Assembly: GCF_003334815.1 (NCBI RefSeq)
Contig: NZ_QOWO01000134.1
Reading direction: 5' to 3' (one strand)
DNA length: 353 bases
Source of the DNA: Escherichia coli
GTDB taxonomy: Bacteria > Pseudomonadota > Gammaproteobacteria > Enterobacterales > Enterobacteriaceae
Part shown: in pieces, positions 1-353 of the stretch
Layout of the letters: the number at the start of each line of letters is the position of its first letter
Position numbering within the stretch: the stretch's first letter is position 1
Made by a program: the position numbers and the translations under genes
Notes under the pieces: model-generated
The model's database searches: none
What the model saw: only the letters and a program-made list of their open reading frames with translations
Told to the model about the DNA's origin: nothing

Positions 1-353
1 CCAGCCACAGAAATCACAGCCCTGTTCGGCATACCAGTGCTCCAGCGTGCAGCTGAAACGGCGGCTTAATTCTGCAATAACGTCGCTTTCCGGCTGACAC
101 CACGGCGTGTCGAAATCAACCTGAATGAAGTTGTCTCCCTGACTACTGATATTCAGGTCATACCCACAAGGCCACTTCACGCCATACCGTTCTGTATACC
201 AGTGATATGCAGAAGGAACACCGTTCAGAACACCGCCGTTAAAGCCATTCACTTCAATATCCAGGCGGGTCGGCAAAACCGTCAGCAGGTCAAACGGCAT
301 GGTTTTTTCCGGCAGTACGTTGTCACACAGACGGTTCCACCACACCGATACAT
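1..353 (-). CDS. Partial CDS for a hypothetical Trp/Cys-rich protein of unknown family; open across the whole window, truncated at the 3' end and probably at the 5' end
   Basis: Seen in sequence: the minus-strand frame with codons at 349-351, 346-348 ... 1-3 has 117 consecutive sense codons and no stop. Codon choice is typical of E. coli-like coding sequence (CTG Leu, CCG Pro, GGC Gly, GAA Glu, AAC Asn, GAC Asp dominate). The other two minus-strand frames are closed by stops (TGA at 282-284 and TGA at 323-325 on the minus strand). The in-register antisense frame on the plus strand is full of rare codons (ATA x4, CGG x5, AGG x2, AGA, CGA) and has no in-frame ATG. An in-frame ATG lies at 300-298; the 17 codons upstream of it (VSVWWNRLCDNVLPEKT) share the Trp/Cys-rich character and preferred-codon usage of the rest, so I favour a start beyond position 353, but a start at 300 cannot be excluded. 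Product family not recognised. Confidence 0.8.
298..310 (-). promoter_or_regulatory. Possible translation initiation site (alternative start): weak GGA Shine-Dalgarno-like element, A-rich spacer, then ATG at 300-298
   Basis: Seen in sequence: the minus strand reads CCGGAAAAAACC-ATG, with GGA seven nucleotides upstream of the ATG and an A6 spacer. The GGA is only a 3-nt match to the Shine-Dalgarno consensus, and the frame stays open and coding-like upstream, so this is more likely an internal Met codon than the true start. Confidence 0.25.

Follow-up and report, generated by a model that had tools for sequence, protein, structure and literature searches.

An A6 run inside a DUF1281/Api92-like gene of Escherichia coli plasmids and its A5 allele, yubA/yubB of F

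The closest described counterparts of the gene considered here are yubA and yubB of the F plasmid and Api92 of Yersinia pseudotuberculosis (2IJR), the latter known from a structural-genomics entry under the bare name 'hypothetical protein api92'. Nothing relevant to DUF1281, yubA/yubB or api92 was found in the literature. Runs of comparable form occur in contingency loci of Neisseria, Haemophilus and Campylobacter, where a change in the length of a mononucleotide run within the coding region shifts the reading frame; six bases is below the typical length of a contingency tract. Another comparable system is -1 frameshifting of the dnaX type, which involves A AAA AAG and flanking stimulators. 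As regards the genomic setting, early transcription once a plasmid has entered by conjugation is described for the methylase homologue M.EcoGIX and for several further leading-region operons (PMC9849209, PMC12672017). The DUF1281/Api92-like gene is absent from the discussion in these two papers.

The gene containing the window

The window, that is, the whole stretch of 353 nt that was analysed, had been read in three ways from its letters: as a part of one continuous gene with an internal Met, as two overlapping genes, or as a slippage-prone homopolymer that could imply phase variation. The minus-strand frame of the ATG at positions 300-298 is open over the whole window (VSVWWNRLCDNVLPEKTMPFDLL...CDFCGW), and stops are abundant in the remaining two minus-strand frames. 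The window is 100% identical to genes annotated on E. coli plasmids as 'DUF1281 domain-containing protein'. Matches were found in 3,855 records, covering 3,032 of the 5,426 complete E. coli genomes; in these genomes the places of the matches are overwhelmingly plasmid-borne (3,873 plasmid versus 48 chromosomal).

The reverse complement of the window corresponds to positions 4001-4353 of a locus from the IncI1 plasmid pM217_I1 (locus L001). The whole gene occupies L001 3565-4491 and has 308 codons, the annotation of this locus giving 3589-4491; window positions 1-351 (minus strand) are codons 147-263. Extension of the sequence beyond position 353 had been proposed as a check, and the favoured frame stays open up to an ATG at L001 3565, 436 nt upstream of window position 353. 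This start-codon region (L001 3520-3590, sense strand, 412-436 nt beyond window position 353) contains a strong ribosome-binding site: the sequence ahead of the ATG is GAGAGGAGAATTCCC, with GAGGAG 7 nt before the start, and the anti-Shine-Dalgarno duplex has an energy of -9.1 kcal/mol, compared to the gene-wide median of -3.1 kcal/mol over all 20-nt segments. Both the ATG and the Shine-Dalgarno sequence are kept across alleles. The resulting N-terminus, MPNWCSNR, lies outside the window. Given the GAGGAG duplex and the family-invariant MPNWCxNR, the ATG at L001 3565 is very likely the true start of a 308-aa protein. Existing annotations of the start disagree: RefSeq gives 300 aa (ATG 3589) or 308 aa, and there exist clusters of 323-aa proteins.

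The protein belongs to the DUF1281/Api92-like family. It matches the Pfam domain PF06924 (DUF1281) with an E-value of 1.5e-46 over model positions 1-177 of 177, followed at the C-terminal side by PF18406 (DUF1281_C, YubB ferredoxin-like domain; 2.7e-15). The phmmer comparison with Api92 aligns residues 3-274 in a single chain (3.1e-47), and Foldseek, applied to an AlphaFold model with mean pLDDT of 91, yields E 3.8e-26 and TM 0.83/0.91 at 32% identity. Neither the PDB sequence search nor Foldseek gave a match other than Api92. In Salmonella, Klebsiella, Pantoea and Kosakonia there are full-length homologues of 304-312 aa, and the protein has the usual family length (about 305-312 aa). The N-terminal pattern M-P-x-W-C-x-N-R, in which 38 homologues all agree at M1, P2, W4, C5, N7 and R8, is present here. 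Thus the window-wide frame, the strong start upstream and the end-to-end family match bear out the reading favoured in the original prediction, and we consider the window to be the interior of one intact 308-codon DUF1281/Api92-like gene, whose A-run, ATG and short ORF are ordinary, with a probability of about 0.9.

The gene is located at the distal end of the IncI1/IncF leading region; on one side of it are the partition genes and on the other an orphan DNA methylase gene. Just upstream of its ribosome-binding site, at L001 3370-3534, there is a large imperfect hairpin with 27-nt arms 111 nt apart, whose single-strand DNA fold has an energy of -76 kcal/mol (z = -4.4). The hairpin is nearly identical in pM217_I1 (IncI1) and upstream of yubA in F (L006, approximately 840-1005). 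It looks similar to the leading-region stem-loop single-stranded DNA promoters (Frpo/ssi; PMC9849209, PMC12672017).

Several rearranged copies were observed as well. In pO157 (L018 1-190; NZ_CP017441.1 58073-58262), ltrA, which encodes the reverse transcriptase of a group II intron, ends 76 nt ahead of the annotated gene start, and the first eight codons (MPNWCSNR) together with the ribosome-binding site are swapped for unrelated sequence; this copy has the A6 run and lacks the invariant N-terminus. In the predicted proteins P0017, P0024, P0033, P0054 and P0081 an N-terminal part of DUF1281 is fused to PsiB (PF06290) or to a DNA methylase domain (PF01555), which suggests leading-region deletions joining the DUF1281 gene to distant genes of the region.

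The A5 allele and the yubA and yubB genes of F

The A6 homopolymer was observed at positions 303-308 (minus strand) of the sequence. It is part of codons GAA-AAA-ACC (Glu161-Lys162-Thr163), and the in-frame ATG at 300-298 is Met164. Both elements are thus present where they had been predicted, whereas the GGA described as a separate upstream element consists in fact of GG at 310-309 and the A with which the run begins. In a different frame, a 23-codon ORF (MYRCGGTVCVTTYCRKKPCRLTC) runs from an ATG at 353-351 to a TGA at 284-282 (minus strand, 282-353) and overlaps the stretch starting from the internal ATG by 19 nt. This TGA is unused in the window.

The reference F plasmid NC_002483.1 carries five A residues in this run (A5). 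Its upstream frame, ...NVLPEKPCRLTC, ends after 168 aa (...PEKPCRLTC) at the TGA matching window positions 284-282, and the ORF starting from the window's ATG, at 298-300 on the minus strand, has 145 aa. These ORFs are exact matches to YUBA_ECOLI and YUBB_ECOLI, respectively, and each product is found on at least 1,000 contigs. The two halves are annotated as two ORFs with the 19-nt overlap in AP027449 (GenBank), and RefSeq/PGAP calls the A5 allele a frameshifted pseudogene. A single DUF1281/Api92-like gene, interrupted where one A has been lost, gives rise to both YubA and YubB. A by-product for annotation is that each of these two UniProt entries for the reference F plasmid describes half of a gene. 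The suggestion of two overlapping genes fails for the A6 window, which has no stop in the upstream frame, but it exactly describes the A5 allele, that is, yubA/yubB.

The A6 run behaves as an ordinary 6-nt homopolymer with a low background gain or loss of one base, and one A6 to A5 loss became established in a lineage that includes the classical F plasmid. In the A5 state the upstream frame enters the alternative frame of the window and terminates at the TGA, producing the 168-aa YubA, and gene callers restart at the window's ATG, producing the 145-aa YubB.

It is unlikely, although conceivable from the layout of the site, that the split is tolerated, with YubB produced by termination-reinitiation, or with a -1 slip of tRNA-Lys on GAA-AAA-C restoring the full-length protein. 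The ATG of YubB lies 16 nt upstream of the yubA stop within the overlap, and with a -1 slip on A5 the translation would again read exactly ...PEKTM.... Both halves are open in the sampled F-type alleles. In the F-type A5 clade pN/pS has a value of 0.26, no different from that of intact A6 alleles; it is based on about 7 differences per pair, and recombination may import intact sequence. The A5 alleles, once repaired, have no extra stops, and, except in F and PEC240, their mismatches at 97 family-conserved positions are no more numerous than in the A6 alleles, substitutions being few. However, the site contains no Shine-Dalgarno signal and no in-phase slippery heptamer X XXY YYZ: the zero frame is CCG GAA AAA ACC, and neither G-GAA-AAA nor A-AAA-ACC fits the pattern. 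No significant RNA structure was observed downstream of the run (113 nt, z = -1.34, 17 of 200 shuffles folding as well), as measured on the A6 window sequence. There was no Rfam match for the window at E <= 1. A programmed -1 frameshift was thus rejected, the heptamer phase, the downstream folding and the comparison with known RNA families all giving no support.

The state of the A5 records also argues against a functional split gene. Several of them contain further indels. In F and the near-identical PEC240 allele (loci L006 and L023) the protein has the substitutions P173F and W206G at positions conserved in at least 90% of the 38 homologues, which hints at decay of the C-terminal half in F itself. 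This matters for the use of F as a model of the leading region, as it carries the broken allele, and its YubB is also altered at two nearly invariant residues. Slightly more improbable still is a composite arrangement in which the A-run acts as a low-frequency toggle (ON/OFF or split/unsplit) and the A5 state of F continues to work, either with YubA and YubB both made, the latter via reinitiation, or with some full-length protein restored by a -1 slip; if it were true, the gene would still function, in two pieces or by recoding, on the many F-like plasmids with A5. The loss of one A most probably leaves the gene in a loss-of-function (pseudogene) state.

The A6 run and the internal ATG in the intact gene

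In the intact protein, the codons of the A6 run fall within a coil, residues 157-167, between helices (AlphaFold model, pLDDT 91), and the encoded residues are variable in distant homologues. The run simply encodes Glu-Lys-Thr in a variable loop. There are 13 homopolymers of at least 6 nt in the 8.35-kb locus, approximately 0.55 per 353 nt, and 27% of shuffled windows contain a run of at least 6 nt. The alternative sense frames of the DUF1281 gene have stop-free stretches of 57-68 codons. The coordinates of the 23-codon ORF had been given correctly; its start is not the start of a genomic ORF, since it is set by the edge of the window, the ORF being the tail of a 66-codon out-of-frame ORF (L001 3872-4072). 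It is a chance open stretch and not a gene in the A6 allele. None of the three elements, the A6 run, the ATG and the short ORF, exceeds chance expectation.

That the ATG at 300-298 also serves as a genuine start within the intact gene, so that a separate YubB-like C-terminal protein of 145 aa is made beside the full-length product, is very improbable. The GG preceding the A-run does place a GGA about 7 nt ahead of the ATG, the A-rich spacer is likely to be unstructured, and gene callers choose this ATG when the gene is frameshifted. On the other hand, the anti-Shine-Dalgarno duplex in the 20 nt upstream of it has an energy of -3.5 kcal/mol, which is close to the gene median and far from the value at the true start, and by these duplex energies no Shine-Dalgarno signal above the gene background is present at the Met164 ATG. 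Homologues with 44-60% identity have C, Q, E, R, A or F in place of Met164. Moreover, the residue is situated inside the Pfam DUF1281 domain, 45 residues ahead of the C-terminal domain. An internal start is supported neither by the duplex energies nor by conservation of the Met, and Met164 is an ordinary internal Met that, within the family, is peculiar to the branch from E. coli plasmids.

The same data bear on translational coupling. In the A6 window the frame of the upstream gene is the frame of the ATG and has no stop, and no ribosome-binding site was observed for a start at Met164; the overlap expected of a coupled pair exists only in the A5 alleles. Taken together, the open frame, the start, the family match, the non-conserved Met and the lack of a Shine-Dalgarno signal show that one continuous gene with an internal Met is the correct reading of the A6 sequence. 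The original prediction had added that a clear upstream start with a good ribosome-binding site and an A-tract of invariant length would reduce the feature to an ordinary Met and a chance homopolymer. The start was found; the tract is not invariant, A5 occurring in 198 of about 3,700 records, and thus only half of this expectation holds.

Length variation of the run and comparison with known systems

Sixty records evenly spaced down the similarity ranking were sampled first. In four of them the match was 1-2 bases shorter than the query; PGAP labels all four as 'frameshifted', and the alignments place A5 exactly at the A6 run in each. Tract lengths were then counted in assembled consensus sequences by short BLAST queries, with the 28-nt megablast word forced to span the run, which makes the search specific for tract length; about 140 of 3,876 records with a substitution inside the 28-nt core fall outside this census. 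A7 is masked by the low-complexity filter and was therefore counted by a word-11 search on the invariant flanks.

Among complete E. coli genome records, the census found A4 in none, A5 in 198 and A6 in 3,524, that is, about 5% A5 and about 95% intact A6 among records carrying the tract. A7 was found in six full-length exact matches and in 11 matches of the >=99% band. In PLSDB, A5 is present in 254 plasmids from four genera, including the reference F plasmid and a few plasmids of Klebsiella, Salmonella and Shigella. The A5 records are very unevenly distributed: 190 of the 198 share one exact 41-mer context, GTCCTGCCGG-A5. Within this F-type context there are 190 A5 and 370 A6 records (560 in total), and the six sampled F-type A5 alleles form one tight clade together with pO157. 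The A5 allele in the F context is likely to derive from one or a few ancestral events.

Outside this context, A5 is as rare as one-base losses at control runs. There are 8 A5 versus 3,154 A6 records in the non-F contexts (8/3,162 = 0.25%). Two runs of six bases served as controls: the G6 run of the same gene (L001 4391-4396) with 8 G5 versus 2,749 G6 records (8/2,757 = 0.29%), and the A6 run of the neighbouring methylase gene (L001 7240-7245) with one -1 variant versus 790 intact records (1/791 = 0.13%). At least five allele backgrounds carry A5 and at least two carry A7, with one A7 allele identical to the pO145 allele but for the extra A, and thus slippage recurs. Half of the sampled A5 records have further one-base indels in nearby runs, and the six exact A7 records have names and accessions of one style (2013C-, 2015C-, 2014EL-, M9682; CP024xxx, CP027xxx). 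Assembly errors may account for some of these scattered variants; the rate of the variants equals the background either way. The overall pattern fits one successful inherited frameshift allele plus ordinary slippage or error.

The control G6 run, 38 nt beyond window position 1 (sense strand), is a second frameshift site in the gene. The eight E. coli records with G5 include plasmids of JJ1886 and JJ1887; G5 occurs together with A5 in SME173 and AVS0947, and G7 was observed in OkiPb01677. A different kind of change is seen in locus L010 (CP042640.1 82225-83465), which combines A5 with two separate TA insertions at alignment columns 108-109 and 372-373, each converting CTGGCCAG to CTGGTACCAG and creating GGTACC. 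These insertions, both at one motif, look like a systematic artefact of assembly or polishing.

Phase variation, with a contingency switch at which slipped-strand mispairing, at an elevated and selected rate, would turn the gene ON (A6) or leave it OFF or split (A5, A7), is very improbable here. It could draw on the existence of length variants in both directions on several allele backgrounds and on the share of A5 among the E. coli records. However, the concentration of A5 in one sequence context fits inheritance, the rate of -1 variants outside it is the same as at the two control runs, and the A6 run merely supplies the Glu-Lys-Thr codons of a variable loop, whose residues are missing in distant homologues. 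Tract variation clearly above that of comparable runs, as expected of a contingency locus, was not observed in the census. Because nearly all A5 records share one context and the rates elsewhere are at the control level, the database counts lend no support to phase variation, and what had been proposed as a slippage-prone switch comes down to one inherited allele and control-level events.

The converse explanation, that the length variants are nothing but homopolymer errors of sequencing or assembly, may be suggested by the additional indels in nearby runs, the single assembly series of the A7 records and the control-level rates outside the F context, but it is the least probable of all and could hold only for the scattered variants, as the F-context A5 is present in the reference F plasmid, in F and F' strains whose sequences were determined independently (EMG2, DHB4, TG1) and in many plasmids and contigs.

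We conclude that there is nothing unusual about the A-run feature and that existing annotation already covers it. As originally formulated the finding matters little: it comprises the interior of an annotated gene, a chance ORF and an unremarkable homopolymer.

Comparison with the known systems leads to the same picture. The A6 run resembles dnaX-type sites in being an A-rich run of Lys codons on which tRNA-Lys could slip, but it lacks the in-phase heptamer, the upstream Shine-Dalgarno stimulator, a significant stem-loop (z = -1.3) and an Rfam match, and the shifted frame of the A6 allele ends after six codons. As in contingency loci, it is a mononucleotide run within a coding region where a length change shifts the frame, and both -1 and +1 alleles are found in the databases; unlike them, it has only 6 nt, and outside one inherited lineage its variants are as frequent as those of the control runs. 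Api92 has the same fold and the same domain order, whereas its residues equivalent to the A-run read ...MQEHACN.... Finally, yubA/yubB of F are the same gene in the same place, after a partition gene and before an orphan DNA methylase gene; the DNA is about 94% identical, the yubB start is the ATG of the window and the yubA stop is its TGA. The difference is that F has A5 and a split gene, whereas with the A6 of the window the 308-aa protein is encoded intact.
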